Of a DNA stretch of 64,000 nucleotides, positions 16,998 through 25,679 are shown one piece after another. The translations under genes and the position numbers were made by a program. Every line of letters begins with the position of its first letter. Positions within the stretch are counted from its first letter, which is position 1. The notes under the pieces were generated by a model. That model was given only the letters and a program-made list of their open reading frames with translations. It ran no database searches and had not been told where the DNA came from. The stretch covers positions 224,001-288,000 of the forward strand of contig CAVSJV010000002.1 of assembly GCA_963728405.1 (NCBI GenBank), given 5' to 3'. This stretch comes from Methanomassiliicoccaceae archaeon. Its GTDB lineage: Archaea; Thermoplasmatota; Thermoplasmata; Methanomassiliicoccales; Methanomassiliicoccaceae.

Positions 16998-17147
16998 TTC
17001 AAGCAATGGGATCGGGCCGCAACGGCATCAATGAATGTGATTCGGCCTGGTCATCTCTGTCCGAATTACTTTCTGCTCTCCTTTCGGCCGTCAACAATTG
17101 TCCATTGTTGTGATATTTTATTAATGAGCCGATGCAACAATATTGAT

Positions 17148-18176
17148 ATGACCTCCAAAGGGCGGTTCCTAGCGGCACTGGAACTTGAGATGCCTGATAG
17201 AGTTCCGACCATGCACATCCAGTTGGGTGGGGCCAATCATCTCCAGGACAGCACCGGAATGGCGATCCGCGAGGCATATTACGACGCAAATAAATTCGCT
17301 CGTTTATGTTTAGCGTCAATGGAATTTGGTTTTGACAATGTCATGGTCGCCTGGGGGGACCTCCTCAACGAAGCGCAGGCCTTCGGGGTCGAGCTCACTT
17401 TTCCTAACGAGAAGGATTATCCGCGGGGGACGCCGATCTCCCCCGACAAGATCGAGGGGCTCGAGGTCATCGACCCTATGGGCGATGACGTATGGGCCAC
17501 ATCATTGAGAGCAGCTAAGATCGTCAATGATAAGGTGGGGAACGAAATGGCGGTGATCGGGCAGGTCAGCGACCCCTTTACCTTGGCCGCCGCGATCCGA
17601 GGGTTCGATGGCCTGCTTATGGACGAGATCATGGAACCTGACCGTACTCATCATCTACTCAGCGTGGTCACCGATTCACTGAAAGAATACGGTAGGCTGC
17701 TCAAGGAATATGCTGGGGTTGAGATCATCTTCATAGAAGATGGAAGCGCCGACGCAGAGCAGAACATGTTCGACCTGGCCAAGGCGTTCGACATTGATTA
17801 TACCAAGCAAATGGCTGAGCTCTATCATCCCATGGGGCTGCGCTCGATCCTGAGCAATTGTGCCAAAGAGCCCTATCTGGATGCTCAGTTTGAAGCTGTC
17901 AAGCCAACCGCGGTCCACACATCGGTCGAATGGAGCGGATATGGTGATGAATTAAGTAAGCTGAGGGGCCGAGCATGCATTGCAGCTGGCCTATTGCCTC
18001 ATTTCATAGCTCGTTCCGATCCCGGAATGATACGCCAAAAAGTAAGCGAGGTGGTCCGTTCGTCGGGAGATGGCAGCGGGCTCATCATCACATCGGCTGG
18101 GGAAATACCCTTCGACGCTCCCCTCAGCAACATCAAGGCGTTGAGCGGTTCAACCGCACTGATCACGCTCCCCTGA
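17148..18176 (+). CDS. Uroporphyrinogen decarboxylase / MtaA-CmuA superfamily protein
   Basis: MTSKGRFLAAL..PDRVP, EAQAFG, DPFTLAAAIRG, EIPFDAPLSNIKAL. Confidence 0.85.
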   Translation: MTSKGRFLAALELEMPDRVPTMHIQLGGANHLQDSTGMAIREAYYDANKFARLCLASMEFGFDNVMVAWGDLLNEAQAFGVELTFPNEKDYPRGTPISPDKIEGLEVIDPMGDDVWATSLRAAKIVNDKVGNEMAVIGQVSDPFTLAAAIRGFDGLLMDEIMEPDRTHHLLSVVTDSLKEYGRLLKEYAGVEIIFIEDGSADAEQNMFDLAKAFDIDYTKQMAELYHPMGLRSILSNCAKEPYLDAQFEAVKPTAVHTSVEWSGYGDELSKLRGRACIAAGLLPHFIARSDPGMIRQKVSEVVRSSGDGSGLIITSAGEIPFDAPLSNIKALSGSTALITLP

Positions 18177-20189: not shown

Positions 20190-20507
20190 TCAAGCGAAGA
20201 TCACTGCCATTACTGGACCATGGACTTCCTGGTTCATCAGTTGAGGCGGTTCGGTCGCAATGGACTGAAGCTTCTTGGAGACCTTCTGATAGATACCTTT
20301 CTGAGAAGCATTCATTGTATTTTCCGAGTCCCACAAGGCAATGAATGTCGCAGTGTTCGGGTCGTCCATGGACTGGAGAGTGAGCATTCCTCTGAAGCCC
20401 TCCGTCTTCCTAATCTCTTCCATGAAGCCCTCTACGGTCTCAACCGCTTCTGCTCTTTTCCCGGGCTTGAACTTCCATATGGTCATCCTTGCGTGTACCA
20501 TGGCCAT
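20190..20507 (-). CDS. Antibiotic biosynthesis monooxygenase (ABM) / dimeric alpha-beta barrel protein
   Basis: FKPGKRAEA..TEGFRG..DPN...IALWDS pattern. Confidence 0.8.
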   Translation of the reverse strand: MAMVHARMTIWKFKPGKRAEAVETVEGFMEEIRKTEGFRGMLTLQSMDDPNTATFIALWDSENTMNASQKGIYQKVSKKLQSIATEPPQLMNQEVHGPVMAVIFA

Positions 20508-20851: not shown

Positions 20852-21919
20852 CTACTTGTACCGCAGTATGCCTCCCACCTTAATCGTCGACACGAACATC
20901 CCCCCCAGTTCACTCTCGTCGTTGACGACCAAGACCTCGGTGCGGTAGCTCTCGGCCGTCTCCGAGATTTCCTCGATGTCCTTCAGCTCTAGTGCGTCGC
21001 TGACGATAACCACGTCTACCTGACCCCGTCTCAACAGTTCCGCAGTCTTTTCGAGACCCCATACTGCCAGGCCGTCCCTTCCTAGCTCGGCCCAGAACCG
21101 GTCCAGCACCTCTTTCTCGTGGTGGTACTCACAATTCGCCAGCAAGCCTTTTGCCGCATTCATTGCCTCTCGAAGTCCGTTCTCATCGGTATAACCGACG
21201 TCGACAACCCCGATCACCTTTTTGCGTAGCTCGTGATGAAGGTAATTACCAGCCATGAAGTCATCCTTGGTCATGGCCGGGCCGCCGACGATGATACCCC
21301 TCAGACCCTGATCCAGAAAGGCCTCGGTGCACCGGTCCGATATTCTCTTGAAATACGCGTTAATGGCGTCGTCCCTTAGCCGCTCGAACCTTAGGCTAGA
21401 CATGCCTCCGTGGTGGTGCTTGTTGGGAACCCGCGACTCGATTTGGGTATACGCCTTGATGACGGTTCCGGTGACGTAACCGAGGGTGGCCTCGGCCAGG
21501 TCTAGGACCAGGATGCCGTAAGTATCACGGGTTTCGGTCATCAGATAGAGTGGATCGAGGAAAAACTCGCTGTCGCACCTGTAGACGAAATCGGAGAGCG
21601 GCATAGGCGGCTCTATCACCTGGCGGTGGAGGCGGTCATCGACCTCGCCGAACAGTAGCACTAGGCCGTTGCCCGGAGCGATCTTACCCAGGCTAGTCAA
21701 CTGGGATAGGAGCGATGAGATAGCTGTCTGAATGTTCTTGCCAAGGAGCTGGGACTCGCTCCCCTTGGCCTCCGAGTAGTGGTCCTGGAGATAGACACGG
21801 ACATCGCTGATGGGCTTGCCGGGCGGGATGTACAACGAGATCAGTTGGGCTCTGTCCGCCTTGATGCTCCGGGCATGGTCCAATCGCTTCTTGAACAAGG
21901 GTGCGTTCATCCAATACAC
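20852..21919 (-). CDS. Peptide chain release factor aRF1/eRF1 paralogue (GGM, no NIKS)
   Basis: LISLYIPP, YRCDSEF, SRVPNKHHHGGMSSLRFERLR, GGPAMTK, VGYTDENGLRE, GGILRY. Confidence 0.92.
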   Translation of the reverse strand: MYWMNAPLFKKRLDHARSIKADRAQLISLYIPPGKPISDVRVYLQDHYSEAKGSESQLLGKNIQTAISSLLSQLTSLGKIAPGNGLVLLFGEVDDRLHRQVIEPPMPLSDFVYRCDSEFFLDPLYLMTETRDTYGILVLDLAEATLGYVTGTVIKAYTQIESRVPNKHHHGGMSSLRFERLRDDAINAYFKRISDRCTEAFLDQGLRGIIVGGPAMTKDDFMAGNYLHHELRKKVIGVVDVGYTDENGLREAMNAAKGLLANCEYHHEKEVLDRFWAELGRDGLAVWGLEKTAELLRRGQVDVVIVSDALELKDIEEISETAESYRTEVLVVNDESELGGMFVSTIKVGGILRYK

Positions 21920-22160: not shown

Positions 22161-22614
22161 TTAATTCTTTTCCTCGATCCGGACGGCCCGTTCCAGCTCC
22201 GACTGCAGATATTTCCTCATCACTTCCATGGCGTTCTCCCTGGACTGGGGATAGGATTTCACCTTGCCGCGTATGGCGATGACGTCCTCACCGTCGGCCA
22301 TCTTGAACTGCCGGAGGAATGCTTCCTGCTTGCCCAACCTTAGGAAGAAGAACGATTCTTCGTCCAACCTACGGTCCAGGGAGTCCAGCAGCTGCGAAAG
22401 GTCCTCCCTGCTCAACGAACGGAACAATGCCTTGATACTCTTGGCATCGGTGACCTTCACCTCCATAACAATGATGGGGTTGCCATGGTAGCCGGTGCTG
22501 CTGCTCTGCTTTATCTCCTCGGCCCCAGAAACGAACTTCAGAGCCTGCTCGACCCGGTTGGGGTCCTCGGTGGCGTGAGCGAACTGTCCGGAAGGCCAGA
22601 TTGGCGATGTCCAT
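22161..22614 (-). CDS. Archaeal RNA-binding protein (DUF54/PF01877-like; frameshift at 22585)
   Basis: Repaired reading FRTFAHATED..GYHGNPI..FFLRLGKQEAF. Confidence 0.85.
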
Positions 22615-22754
22615 GTTCGTTGATATGTCGCAGGGATAATTATGTTTTTCCGCAGGCTAAAATTAATTCCATTAGTTTAAATAATGCTGGCTCAACTTTT
22701 GAGGTTTCTTTGAGGACGGAGAGAAATGGGGAAGCAATACGAGGTCCGGGCAGT

Positions 22755-23306
22755 ATGATCGAGGTTCGATTCCATGGTAGGGGCGGACAGGGCGCTGTGA
22801 TCGCCTCAGAGATATTGGCAAGGGCTGCGGTAAAGGAAGGCATGTACGCTTCGGCCTTCCCGTTCTTCGGGGTCGAGCGCCGTGGAGCCCCGGTCATGGC
22901 GTTCTGTCGTATCGATGACCGACCGATCCGCATACATGCAGGGATCTACGACCCCGACCATGTGGTCATCCTGGACCAGGGGCTGATCAAACTGGTCGAT
23001 GTTCTCCAAGGGCATCGAAAGAACGGATCCATCGTGGTCAACACCGCAAAGACGCTCACCGAGCTTGGGCTGTCCCTCGACCGCCGCCAGGTTCTGGTCG
23101 ATGCCACATCGATCGCGTTGCGCCGAGGATTGGGCAGCGAGACCGCCCCGATCGTCAATACCGCCATTCTGGGGGCGTTCGCCCGGGCCTGCTCCAAGGT
23201 CTCGATCGATGCGATTCTAGAAAGCATCAAGGAGTCGGTGCCAGCAAAGCCCGAACAGAACGTGGCAGCAGCTCAGGACGCCTACCAACAATGGGAGTGG
23301 TTGTGA
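22755..23306 (+). CDS. porC: Pyruvate/2-ketoisovalerate:ferredoxin oxidoreductase gamma subunit
   Basis: MIEVRFHGRGGQGAV, FPFFGVERRGAPV, PIVNTAILGA. Confidence 0.93.
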   Translation: MIEVRFHGRGGQGAVIASEILARAAVKEGMYASAFPFFGVERRGAPVMAFCRIDDRPIRIHAGIYDPDHVVILDQGLIKLVDVLQGHRKNGSIVVNTAKTLTELGLSLDRRQVLVDATSIALRRGLGSETAPIVNTAILGAFARACSKVSIDAILESIKESVPAKPEQNVAAAQDAYQQWEWL

Positions 23307-23582
23307 TGTTCAGGACAGTATCACGACCTGCCTTCCGTTCCGGTGACCTCTCAGAGCACCGAAGACGTTATTACCGGGACGTGGAGGACCATCCGGCCGG
23401 TACTGGATGGGGACAAGTGCATTCGTTGCTACATCTGCTGGAAGTACTGCCCCGACCTGAGCATCAAGGTCGAGGAGGAGGGCGCCTATCCAGAGATCGA
23501 TTACGATCATTGCAAGGGCTGCGGCATCTGTTCGAACGAATGCCCCAAGGGAGCGATCCGAATGGAAAGGGAGCAGCTATGA
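23306..23582 (+). CDS. porD: Oxidoreductase delta subunit (2x[4Fe-4S]; frameshift at 23317)
   Basis: TGTWR..RP, CIRCYICWKYCP, DYDHCKGCGICSNECP. Repaired start MFRTYHDLP overlaps the porC stop. Confidence 0.92.
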
Positions 23583-24760
23583 TCGACATGATGACCGCGA
23601 ACTATGCCGCGGCCTACGCGGCCAAGCTCGCCAGGATTGACGTCGCCGCGGTATATCCCATCACCCCGCAGACATCTATATCAGAAAAACTGGCCGAGAT
23701 GGTGCAAAAAGGGGAACTGGATGCCAAGTACATGCTCATGGAGAGCGAGCATTCCGCGATGTCGGCGCTCATTGGCGCGTCGTACGTCGGCGCCAGGACC
23801 TTCACCGCCACCTCTTCGCAGGGTCTTGCGTTGATGCATGAAATGCTCATGTGGGCGGTGGGAGCGAGGACGCCGATCGTCATGCCGGTGGCCGCAAGGG
23901 CCATCGGGGGGCCTTGGAACATCTGGGGAGAGCATCAGGACGTCATCACCGAGCGGGACACCGGCTGGATGCAAATATTCTGTGAGAATAACCAGGAGGT
24001 CCTGGACACCGTGCTCATGGCCTATCGGGTGGCCGAGGACCGCCGGGTGATGCTGCCGGCGATGGTCATTGAGGATGGGTTCATACTGTCCCATACGGTC
24101 GATAGCGTCGATGTACCATCGCAGGAGGAAGTAGACCGGTACCTACCGCCATTCCGTCCCGAGTACCCCATCGATGTTGAACGACCGATCCGTCATGGAG
24201 GGCTGGTCATGCCAGATTGGTGGACGGAGTTCCGTTATCGTATCTACCTCGACCAGGAGAATGCCCGCACCAAGATATTGGAGGCTGAGAAGGAGTTCCA
24301 GAAGGCCTTCGGCAGGAGCTACGGCGGCATGATGGAATACTACCAGTGCGACGATGCTGCCGTCATCCTGATCGTGGCCGGGTCGGCCGCCGGGACGGCC
24401 AAGGAGGTCGTCGACACGCTGAGGTCCCAGGGCAAGAGGGTCGGAGTGGCCAAGCTACGGGTCTTCCGCCCCTTCCCGACAGAGGAATTGCGTCTGCTGG
24501 CATCGATGTCCCATACTATTGGAGTATTTGATCGGAGCTATACCTTCGGGGACGGCGGTGCCATGTTCAACGAGGTCCGTTCCGCACTGCAGGGGCATGA
24601 GGTGATCATCAAGGATTATGTCGGAGGCCTGGGCGGCAGGGATGTGACAGTGAAGAACATTGAATGGATCTTCGAGGACCTGCTCAAGATATCGAAGGGC
24701 GGTAGGGTTGACCGCCCCATAGAATGGGTCGGGTTGAAGGACGGGACCGGGAGGTGGTAG
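23579..24760 (+). CDS. porA: Oxidoreductase alpha subunit
   Basis: YPITPQT, ESEHSA, TATSSQGLALMHE, FRPFP, GLGGRD. Confidence 0.94.
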   Translation: MIDMMTANYAAAYAAKLARIDVAAVYPITPQTSISEKLAEMVQKGELDAKYMLMESEHSAMSALIGASYVGARTFTATSSQGLALMHEMLMWAVGARTPIVMPVAARAIGGPWNIWGEHQDVITERDTGWMQIFCENNQEVLDTVLMAYRVAEDRRVMLPAMVIEDGFILSHTVDSVDVPSQEEVDRYLPPFRPEYPIDVERPIRHGGLVMPDWWTEFRYRIYLDQENARTKILEAEKEFQKAFGRSYGGMMEYYQCDDAAVILIVAGSAAGTAKEVVDTLRSQGKRVGVAKLRVFRPFPTEELRLLASMSHTIGVFDRSYTFGDGGAMFNEVRSALQGHEVIIKDYVGGLGGRDVTVKNIEWIFEDLLKISKGGRVDRPIEWVGLKDGTGRW

Positions 24761-24761
24761 G

Positions 24762-25679
24762 ATGGACGATGATGCAGCACAGAGGAACTTTAAGTTCACT
24801 ATCCCGAAGGAAGAGCTGATGGCGCCAGGACACAGTGGATGCCCCGGTTGCGGTGAGCCTTTGGCCCTACGCTACCTCCTCAAGGCCCTGGGGCCAAGAA
24901 CGATCGTCAATGTGCCGGCAGGGTGTTGTGCGGTCATACCGGGCGTATGGCCACGCTACTCGCTCAAAGTGCCCTTGGTCGACCATGCCTTCGAGTGCAC
25001 CGCGGCCGTGTCGTCAGGAATCAAGGCCGCGCTGGAGCAGAAAGGCCTTGATGACATCACGGTGGTGGGATGGGCCGGGGACGGGGGGACTGTCGATATC
25101 GGTCTGCAATCCCTGTCCGGGGCGGTCGACCGCCAGACCGATTTTCTCTACGTCATGTACGACAACGAGGCGTACATGAACACTGGTATCCAGTGCAGCG
25201 GCTCAACGCCCTGCGGAGCGTGGACCACCACCACCCCGGGAGGAAAGGGCATCGACCAGCGTCAGGGAAAGAAGCGTATCATGGATATGCTGATCGCCAA
25301 TGGTATCGCCTACGGCGCGACAGTGAACGTGGCCTACCCGGAGAACTTCATCGAGACGGTCCGTCAGGCCAAGGCGATAAAGGGTCCGAAGTTCATTCAT
25401 GCATACTCTCCGTGCCCCTCGGGCTGGAGGATGGACCCCCGACGATCGATCGAGGTCTCTCGCCTGGCCACTCAGACCGGGGTCTTTCCATTATACGAAT
25501 ATCGTGATGGGGTCCACAGATTCACCAAAGAGATTAAGAAGAGGAAGCCGGTTGAAGAATATCTTCGCCTCCAGGGGCGGTTCAGGCATCTGACCCCCGC
25601 TGACGTGGCCGAGGTCCAAAAGCTCATCGACCTTGAGGGTGAGGAGCTGGAGGCCAAGGTGAGGGCGAGTAGAAGGTGA
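24762..25679 (+). CDS. porB: Oxidoreductase beta (TPP-binding) subunit
   Basis: GHSGCPGCG, GDGGTVDIG, DNEAYMNTG, SPCPSGW. Confidence 0.94.
   Translation: MDDDAAQRNFKFTIPKEELMAPGHSGCPGCGEPLALRYLLKALGPRTIVNVPAGCCAVIPGVWPRYSLKVPLVDHAFECTAAVSSGIKAALEQKGLDDITVVGWAGDGGTVDIGLQSLSGAVDRQTDFLYVMYDNEAYMNTGIQCSGSTPCGAWTTTTPGGKGIDQRQGKKRIMDMLIANGIAYGATVNVAYPENFIETVRQAKAIKGPKFIHAYSPCPSGWRMDPRRSIEVSRLATQTGVFPLYEYRDGVHRFTKEIKKRKPVEEYLRLQGRFRHLTPADVAEVQKLIDLEGEELEAKVRASRR

Follow-up and report, generated by a model that had tools for sequence, protein, structure and literature searches.

The GGQ tripeptide is taken as the defining mark of class-1 release factors, and an archaeal member of the family that reads GGM at this site raises the question of whether it is still a working protein and, if so, what it may do on the ribosome. 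The gene in question lies in a 64,000-nucleotide stretch of the genome of a Methanomassiliicoccaceae archaeon (GenBank assembly GCA_963728405.1, contig CAVSJV010000002.1, positions 224,001 to 288,000 of the forward strand), which is referred to below as the window and from whose first nucleotide all positions are counted. The initial annotation, made from the sequence alone, described the product as a candidate non-catalytic ribosome factor, possibly one connected with the decoding of UAG as pyrrolysine. We find that the gene represents a genuine, conserved variant of the aRF1 family that has not been described so far, and an in-frame UAG codon conserved in most of its orthologues adds to its interest. 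We tentatively read the product as a functional, diverged, aRF1-derived factor of the ribosomal A site with altered or lost hydrolytic activity, the dose of which would be gated by read-through of UAG in most relatives; this reading, drawn from sequence comparisons, is plausible though short of probable.

The gene and the elements that the argument depends on are as follows:

20852–21919, minus strand: coding sequence of the aRF1 paralogue, 355 amino acids from the GTG at 21919, stop codon at 20852–20854
21910, minus strand: ATG, the probable start of the paralogue (352 amino acids)
21530–21910, minus strand: N domain with an eRF1_1-type fold, strongly diverged (Pfam, alignment, Foldseek)
21791–21793, minus strand: tyrosine codon TAT (Y43 of the 355-residue open reading frame, ORF), in place of which 12 of the 17 orthologous loci have an in-frame TAG
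21752–21763, minus strand: GSES at the NIKS position (DNA reading and alignment)
21563–21583, minus strand: YRCDSEF, the retained YxCxxxF motif (ORF translation and alignment)
21134–21529, minus strand: M domain (eRF1_2) with the invariant loop NKHHHGGMSSLRFERLRDD (Pfam and alignment)
21401–21409, minus strand: GGA GGC ATG, coding for GGM in place of GGQ (the plus strand reads catgcctcc there)
20855–21133, minus strand: C domain (eRF1_3), which ends in GGILRYK and is devoid of the Cys-rich mini-domain (Pfam and alignment)

The sequence of the encoded protein is NKHHHGGMSSLRFERLR; the ATG at 21910 is its likely start, since relatives begin at the equivalent methionine. The catalytic loop reads KHHHGGMS, and its methionine codon, ATG, is two substitutions away from either glutamine codon, CAA or CAG. 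Both glycines and the arginines behind the loop are retained in the alignment with canonical proteins. The elements that read stop codons fare differently. The NIKS region is SEAKGSESQ as against SQSQNIKSK in the canonical aRF1 of the same host, the GT(S) motif is gone (DRAQLIS as against the canonical GRGTELIS), and a histidine stands at the position of the glutamate equivalent to human E55. The Cys-rich insert of the canonical C domain, some 40 alignment columns long, is a gap. The YxCxxxF motif of the window copy is gone in some other members of its clade, where, for example, LKVGNEF or YKRDREF is found. Thus, the alignment bears out the initial annotation in its description of NIKS as replaced, GT as absent, YxCxxxF as kept and the mini-domain as missing, while the DNA reading, together with the invariance of the loop in relatives (see below), confirms GGM at 21401–21409 as lying at least two substitutions from glutamine and as being no read error.

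The three-domain architecture, too, holds up, since the ORF, Pfam, TIGR03676 and the predicted fold agree on it. Among Pfam families, eRF1_2 scored 126.8 bits and eRF1_3 47.1 bits, with eRF1_1 at 21.4 bits, just below its cut-off of 23.8. The aRF1 equivalog model TIGR03676 of NCBIfam was passed with 326.8 bits (cut-off 234.7). The Pelota model TIGR00111 gave 64.4 bits against a cut-off of 177.65 and the Balon/Rv2629-family model NF052289 gave 48.2 bits against 320, so the protein is by these cut-offs neither a Pelota nor a Balon. Nor do the models place it in a baeRF or VLRF1 family: the Pfam families of baeRF family 10 and acVLRF1 reached 42.7 and 39.8 bits over the stretch where eRF1_2 reached 126.8, and NF041024 gave 18.6 bits against 125. 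The best solved relatives by sequence are the aRF1 structures 4af1 (E 8.5e-63) and 3agk (E 2.3e-48), a Balon-type chain (8v9k_z) being matched only at E 0.0097. An AlphaFold2 model (mean predicted local distance difference test score, pLDDT, 85.6; predicted template modelling score, pTM, 0.66) is least confident at the GGM loop; its top Foldseek matches are the aRF1 chains 4af1, 3agk and 3vmf_B, and its N domain matches the eRF1 N domain 2llx with a TMt of 0.77. By architecture, family hidden Markov model (HMM) and YxCxxxF, then, the paralogue is an aRF1/eRF1 protein, and by GGQ and by the NIKS, GT(S) and E55-equivalent elements it is not. Annotation pipelines name the protein "peptide chain release factor aRF-1", and its HMM score would file it so.

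To what extent the GGM loop is shared by relatives can be judged from homologous protein clusters and from DNA. Out of 722 homologous clusters with E ≤ 1e-10, the best 120 were inspected. HGGMSS is carried by 37 of them and is invariant across these 37, as it is in 17 of 17 distinct DNA loci, although overall identity within the clade drops to about 50%. GGM is therefore not a product of chance or of a read error, and no close homologue inside the clade has GGQ. The next relatives are four short GGQ forms, of which the three that have an N-terminal part keep NIKS, and canonical proteins of about 400 amino acids follow. The 17 loci were obtained by merging three collections. Ten came from a sample of 201 Methanomassiliicoccales genomes; a pattern scan for the clade loop in 185,579 species genomes returned eight, which encode the same proteins as eight of the ten (six are labelled as Methanomassiliicoccales or Methanomassiliicoccaceae metagenome-assembled genomes, one as a Methanobacteriota archaeon and one as a metagenome chromosome); and a metagenome scan added seven. 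Two of the 17 loci encode identical proteins.

Selection on the gene was followed segment by segment in nine copies that bear the in-frame TAG, as ratios of non-synonymous to synonymous differences (pN/pS, mean) and substitution rates (dN/dS, median):

M domain: pN/pS 0.15, dN/dS 0.12
rest of the N domain: pN/pS 0.19, dN/dS 0.15
segment with the former NIKS loop: pN/pS 0.48, dN/dS 0.46
C domain: pN/pS 0.30, dN/dS 0.26
whole gene: pN/pS 0.22, dN/dS 0.17

As can be seen, the codon-reading loop is the most relaxed part of the paralogue and the loop directed at the peptidyl-transferase centre the most constrained. The median dN/dS over all 14 full-length copies is 0.18. The canonical aRF1 of the same genomes has a dN/dS of 0.03–0.08 within the genus g22, and the dN of the paralogue exceeds that of the canonical protein 1.4- to 4-fold in 20 of 21 genome pairs and 13-fold in the remaining one; the paralogue is therefore constrained, but less so than aRF1. 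The gene is thus under purifying selection (0.17–0.22 overall) and not under relaxed selection. With the GGM loop invariant and purifying selection in evidence, neither of the two sequence-based observations that would speak against the initial annotation, GGQ in close homologues or relaxed selection, was made.

A tree built from 133 aRF1-like proteins recovers the GGM clade as monophyletic (support of 99 in the Shimodaira–Hasegawa-like approximate likelihood ratio test, SH-aLRT) and nests it (support 97), together with six short GGQ forms, in a clade of 19 rows, NIKS being present in the three of these that keep the N-terminal part. It stands apart from the canonical aRF1 of the order, and the paralogue is therefore not a recent duplicate of the canonical copy. 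Branching inside the clade tracks that of the canonical aRF1 copies of the same genomes. The gene is patchily distributed, being present in 10 of the 201 sampled genomes of the order: 2 of 24 in family f1 (the host counted), 8 of 47 in family f3, none of 114 in family f7 and none of 16 in the other four families. This history fits vertical descent accompanied by many losses. No host of the short sister forms with GGQ came to light in a search, made without a known positive genome, of 401 genomes sampled from the phylum (E ≤ 1e-95); leads on them are given by Atlas clusters from Nanobdellota, Thermoproteota and Nitrososphaerota.

A canonical factor, too, is encoded in this host. In its assembly (2.73 Mb, 18 contigs, 93.75% complete), an aRF1 gene that carries NIKS, GGQ and YRCDSEF was found on another contig (C7, around 90774) with 514.5 bits. 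It is split by one extra G (GTC TGAC GTG, where a congener has GTC TAC GTG). We read the split as an assembly error because 22 of 118 orthologue-like genes are frame-split in this assembly (88 are single full-length matches), because the host's Pelota gene is split likewise, and because the extra letter is absent from contigs of relatives 88–95% alike that were obtained from three public runs (one contig each; a fourth run gave no cover there). The extra G is thus probably an assembly indel and not biology, though it may be a strain-specific mutation. The "codon-UGA-C" that it creates resembles a frameshift site. The gene for aEF1alpha is intact in the host (727.9 bits).

The second feature that sets the clade apart is the in-frame TAG found in 12 of the 17 loci at the codon that is TAT in the window; the four other loci without TAG read TAT, TAC, TTG and GAG there, and in the alignment the canonical aRF1 has a tyrosine at the equivalent position. 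In the orthologues, TAG is codon 42, preceded by 41 codons. Its context, GAA TAG CTC CAR GG, is identical in 12 of 12 loci. Of 10 invariant-leucine columns, only 2 use a single codon in all 11 non-identical copies, and the column that follows the TAG is one of them, CTC accounting for 22% of leucine codons in the paralogue genes. Because of the in-frame TAG in the DNA, proteins are called N-terminally short: 27 of the 37 clade clusters lack the N-terminal part in the databases. The closest relative of the window protein, P0001 (92% identical, on a 128-kb contig), is called without its first ~73 residues, and a similar interruption of the N-terminal part is presumed.

On the clade tree, the TAG requires at least three state changes and spans the deepest split of a 15-row subclade; the synonymous sites that precede the TAG are close to saturation across this split (21–25.5 differences on 27–28 sites). 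The 41 codons before the TAG have a pN/pS of 0.18 in five independent TAG-bearing pairs (0.19 in the rest of the gene), with 29.7 synonymous versus 18.3 non-synonymous differences (binomial p 4e-9 against neutrality). Apart from the TAG, the ORFs are intact in 17 of 17 loci. That the part before the TAG is selected as protein points to a full-length product made by read-through and not to a dead gene, and we take these sequence data to suggest that the TAG-bearing orthologues are expressed in full by UAG read-through. The simplest reading of the conserved TAG would be leaky termination at a favourable context. If near-cognate tRNA-Tyr decoded the UAG, as happens in eukaryotic read-through of this codon, the ancestral residue would be regained. 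By eye, no shared hairpin was seen after the TAG in single-sequence minimum free energy folds of the region from −30 to +120 in 15 copies.

These data also bear on the possibility that the protein is a release factor of the ordinary kind whose substitution is tolerated, or a duplicate that is decaying into a pseudogene. Such an origin would agree with the TIGR03676 score above cut-off, with a dN/dS about three times that of the canonical copy and with the presence of an in-frame stop in many copies. It is at odds with the loss of three of the four stop-codon-reading elements, with purifying selection over the whole gene, the part before the TAG included, and with the position of the TAG, which stands at one fixed codon instead of being scattered, in ORFs that are otherwise intact. 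We therefore regard it as quite improbable.

Since Methanomassiliicoccales include many users of pyrrolysine (Pyl), one can ask whether the paralogue blocks aRF1 so that Pyl-tRNA may decode UAG. The confinement of the clade to this order, in which PylS was found in 115 of the 201 sampled genomes, and the UAG that the gene itself often carries would both suit such a modulator. In the host, however, the best match to PylS reached 36.4 bits against a cut-off of 178.15 and that to PylD 22.4 bits against 150.05, and MttB, MtmB and MtbB were not found in the assembly. The five absences may reflect an assembly gap; being coherent, at 93.75% completeness, they are more readily explained by gene loss. 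PylS is present in 9 of 10 sampled congeners, and the host seems to belong to a genus of mostly Pyl users while itself having no methylamine/Pyl system. Of the ten genomes with the paralogue, only four have PylS. Of the five TAG-bearing copies that come from genomes, four lie where neither PylS nor PylD was detected, one of which is a single contig 99% complete (the fifth genome has both), while three of the five copies without TAG are in PylS-positive genomes. In family f7, with PylS in 88 of 114 sampled genomes, the paralogue was found in none. A Pyl-linked role is thus largely refuted for the host and, overall, very improbable. Stop-codon usage was rejected as a test of Pyl use in either direction: the TAG share among long ORFs (24% in the host, 20% in the TAG-bearing genome G065 and 22% in the PylS-positive genome G057) equals the all-frame trinucleotide background, and the homology-filtered share (30%, 21.5% and 33%, respectively) is confounded by conserved antisense ORFs. 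Genome-wide recoding of TAG was not apparent in G065, since in-frame stops in 152 conserved high-scoring segment pairs (54,680 aligned residues) were 7 TAG, 6 TAA and 6 TGA, with no excess of TAG. What stands of the non-catalytic ribosome factor first proposed is a conserved, selected aRF1 paralogue beside a canonical aRF1, and its general idea is plausible; its link to pyrrolysine does not stand.

Where the GGM protein may act can be approached through its relatives without the catalytic glutamine. According to Burroughs and Aravind, members that lack this residue (Dom34 and most baeRF-1 families) have poorly conserved catalytic loops of variable length. The frozen GGM loop is unlike these decayed loops, which argues that it still enters the peptidyl-transferase centre. 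Pelota/Dom34 resembles the GGM protein in being a paralogue of aRF1; it goes into the A site, delivered in archaea by aEF1alpha, and neither reads stop codons nor releases peptide there. It has an Sm-like N domain and no GGQ loop, whereas the GGM protein has an eRF1-type N domain and an intact, invariant loop. Canonical aRF1/eRF1 proteins share with it the three domains, the two loop glycines, the downstream arginines, YxCxxxF (in the window copy) and a GILRY-like end, and give its best sequence and fold matches; it differs from them by the absence of GGQ, NIKS, GT(S) and the E55 equivalent, by being a second copy and by its faster dN. The Cys-rich mini-domain of the C domain is missing both here and in short aRF1s of the 3agk type. 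The engineered eRF1(AAQ) (PDB 5lzv, 3jag), chains of which are among the Foldseek matches of the model, binds and accommodates without hydrolysis; it is altered in the glycines, while the natural GGM protein keeps the glycines and is altered in the glutamine.

The nearest functional precedent may be the second aRF1 of Methanosarcina, again a second archaeal copy, which is reported to have no release activity in vitro, its role being left open; it belongs to another order. According to a survey (PMC12626013), 4.3% of archaeal genomes have a pair of aRF1 copies, with no link to Pyl. We found neither a GGM aRF1 nor an amber codon lying in frame within an aRF1 gene described in the literature searched, the copy-number table behind that survey not being covered.

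Balon/Rv2629 and the baeRF-1 families are likewise aeRF1-fold A-site proteins without the catalytic glutamine, and a hibernation or parking factor that occupies the A site of idle ribosomes in starvation, as Balon does in bacteria, is conceivable. Balon chains are found among the Foldseek matches, at lower ranks (22–24, E 2.6e-16 to 4.5e-18), and one solved entry of a crenarchaeal ribosome (8hku) contains a chain of aRF1. Yet these proteins are bacterial, the loop of most Gln-less baeRF-1 families is described as poorly conserved and variable in length where the GGM loop is invariant, and the Balon HMM is missed by a wide distance (48.2 against 320 bits). No hibernation-factor (HPF-like) neighbour, and no conserved neighbourhood at all, accompanies the gene, and the strictly conserved loop suggests engagement of peptidyl-tRNA and not of empty ribosomes. 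We consider such a role unlikely.

The A-site factor that we favour would work as follows. The protein retains the tRNA-shaped three-domain body of aRF1, the GILRY-type C-terminal end and, as far as the alignment and model can tell, a loop that reaches the peptidyl-transferase centre. It would dock in the A site without canonical stop-codon reading, probably delivered by aEF1alpha-GTP, as aRF1 and Pelota are, and would place the GGM loop in the peptidyl-transferase centre, where peptide release would be poor or nil. It would thereby compete with aRF1 and hold or modulate terminating or stalled ribosomes instead of finishing proteins. In most orthologues, full-length synthesis would require read-through of the UAG at codon 42, and this gate would keep the dose low and inversely coupled to the efficiency of UAG termination: through its leaky stop, a potentially dominant-negative protein would be kept scarce, its level rising when UAG termination is weak. 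Because the window has TAT at the gate codon, the window copy would be made unconditionally. A parallel is offered by bacterial prfB, which encodes RF2, a factor that recognises UGA, and is autoregulated through an in-frame UGA and a +1 frameshift. Both are release-factor-family genes whose synthesis depends (in the GGM clade, putatively) on failed termination at an internal stop; they differ in the event itself, a +1 frameshift at UGA for RF2 and, as proposed here, in-frame read-through of UAG for the GGM clade.

Several points weigh against this proposal. TAG-bearing genes may give a product that is started downstream of the TAG. No true suppressor tRNA with a CUA anticodon was present among 41 RF00005 matches in the closed TAG-bearing genome G065, in which several expected tRNAs were not resolved; the tRNAPyl of Methanomassiliicoccales is described as atypical, which weakens this negative. 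An aragorn call of "tRNA-Pyl" in the same genome was rejected as a wrap-around artefact over tRNA-Thr(CGT). No gene neighbours are common to 15 clade loci, and the neighbourhood thus gives no hint of a pathway. On the other side, complex prediction with the host aEF1alpha scored 0.59, the best of three controls being at 0.00, with at least 63% of contacts agreeing between runs and a partner pLDDT of at least 82. In the benchmark, 58 out of 80 solved complexes attained the mark, as did 2 out of 110 mismatched pairs, but with scores of 0.60 or less only 7 of the 80 did so, plus both passing mismatches. Moreover, since an aRF1–aEF1alpha complex (3vmf) has already been solved, the pass may reflect mere likeness, and the predicted complex gives weak support for delivery by aEF1alpha.

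The label "non-catalytic" is one that we infer from the sequence, and it, too, can be questioned. Methionine in place of glutamine need not abolish hydrolysis, given that the glycines and flanking arginines are kept; bacterial release factors mutated in this glutamine retain much activity, and a mutation of the glutamine in human eRF1 reportedly leaves some. The paralogue could, accordingly, be a hydrolysis-competent, codon-independent rescue or release factor in which GGM acts via its pair of glycines and the backbone, on ribosomes that are stalled or non-stop, with a job like that of ArfB/ICT1 or Vms1 on an aRF1 scaffold. The invariance of the two glycines and of the entire loop, the retained downstream arginines, and the loss of the NIKS, GT and E55 readers in a faster-evolving segment (dN/dS 0.46) are what such a factor would be expected to show. 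Set against it are the glutamine itself, otherwise the hallmark by which active members of the superfamily are called, the Pelota that the host already has for rescue, and the stop-codon gate, which is harder to rationalise on a beneficial factor. On balance, we hold a rescue factor to be possible but on the unlikely side.

The A-site reading can be carried further than we would defend with any confidence. The GGM protein would then be a natural archaeal "anti-release factor" with its own leaky UAG (GAA-UAG-CUC-CAR), an aRF1 mimic whose loop goes into the peptidyl-transferase centre but does not hydrolyse normally, made only when UAG termination fails and closing, with a logic akin to that of RF2, a feedback loop that senses termination efficiency in pyrrolysine-free organisms, and the GGW, GGF, GGA and GGE homologues of other archaea would be independent inventions of the same trick; we offer this as a speculative extension that is rather less likely to hold than to fail.

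Among the best 150 representatives at 50% identity, 13 depart from glutamine in the tripeptide: five have GGW (P0125, P0144, P0154, P0167 and P0207), three GGF (P0218, P0228 and P0231), two GGA (P0132 and P0136), one GGE (P0264) and two GGM, among them P0261. One of the two GGM representatives stands for the present clade, and the remaining 12 fall at scattered places in the aRF1 tree, ten of them with NIKS or NIKL and YxCxxxF kept; according to Pfam, all three eRF1 domains are complete in P0125 and P0218. Another kind of variant is seen in P0159, P0163 and about 30 other aRF1 homologues of 500–970 amino acids, which match the query in two pieces with a break at GG(Q)|S. In P0159 and P0163, Intein_splicing, LAGLIDADG and HTH domains lie between the eRF1_2 halves, i.e., inteins interrupt the catalytic loop.

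The surroundings of the gene in the window are as follows:

22161–22466, minus strand: gene just upstream, on the same strand, matching PF01877 ("RNA binding") with 53.3 bits, only over profile positions 51–119 of 120
20190–20507, minus strand: downstream gene for an ABM-domain protein (36.2 bits)
22485–25679, plus strand: divergent four-gene 2-oxoacid:ferredoxin oxidoreductase cluster (POR gamma, 2x[4Fe-4S] delta, POR_N alpha, TPP beta) that adjoins the locus
17031–18176, plus strand: MtaA-like methyltransferase of the URO-D family, about 2.7 kb downstream of the stop codon of the paralogue

Neither the PF01877 nor the ABM neighbour recurs at orthologous loci; both are peculiar to the window.

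For a family whose members are treated as defined by GGQ, a conserved, selected GGM form devoid of stop-codon readers would, if our reading is true, be a new functional type, to be placed alongside Pelota and Methanosarcina's second aRF1. The UAG that stands in frame at a fixed codon in archaea without pyrrolysine would, in turn, be a candidate for programmed stop-codon read-through in Archaea, and one that resides in a gene of the termination machinery itself.

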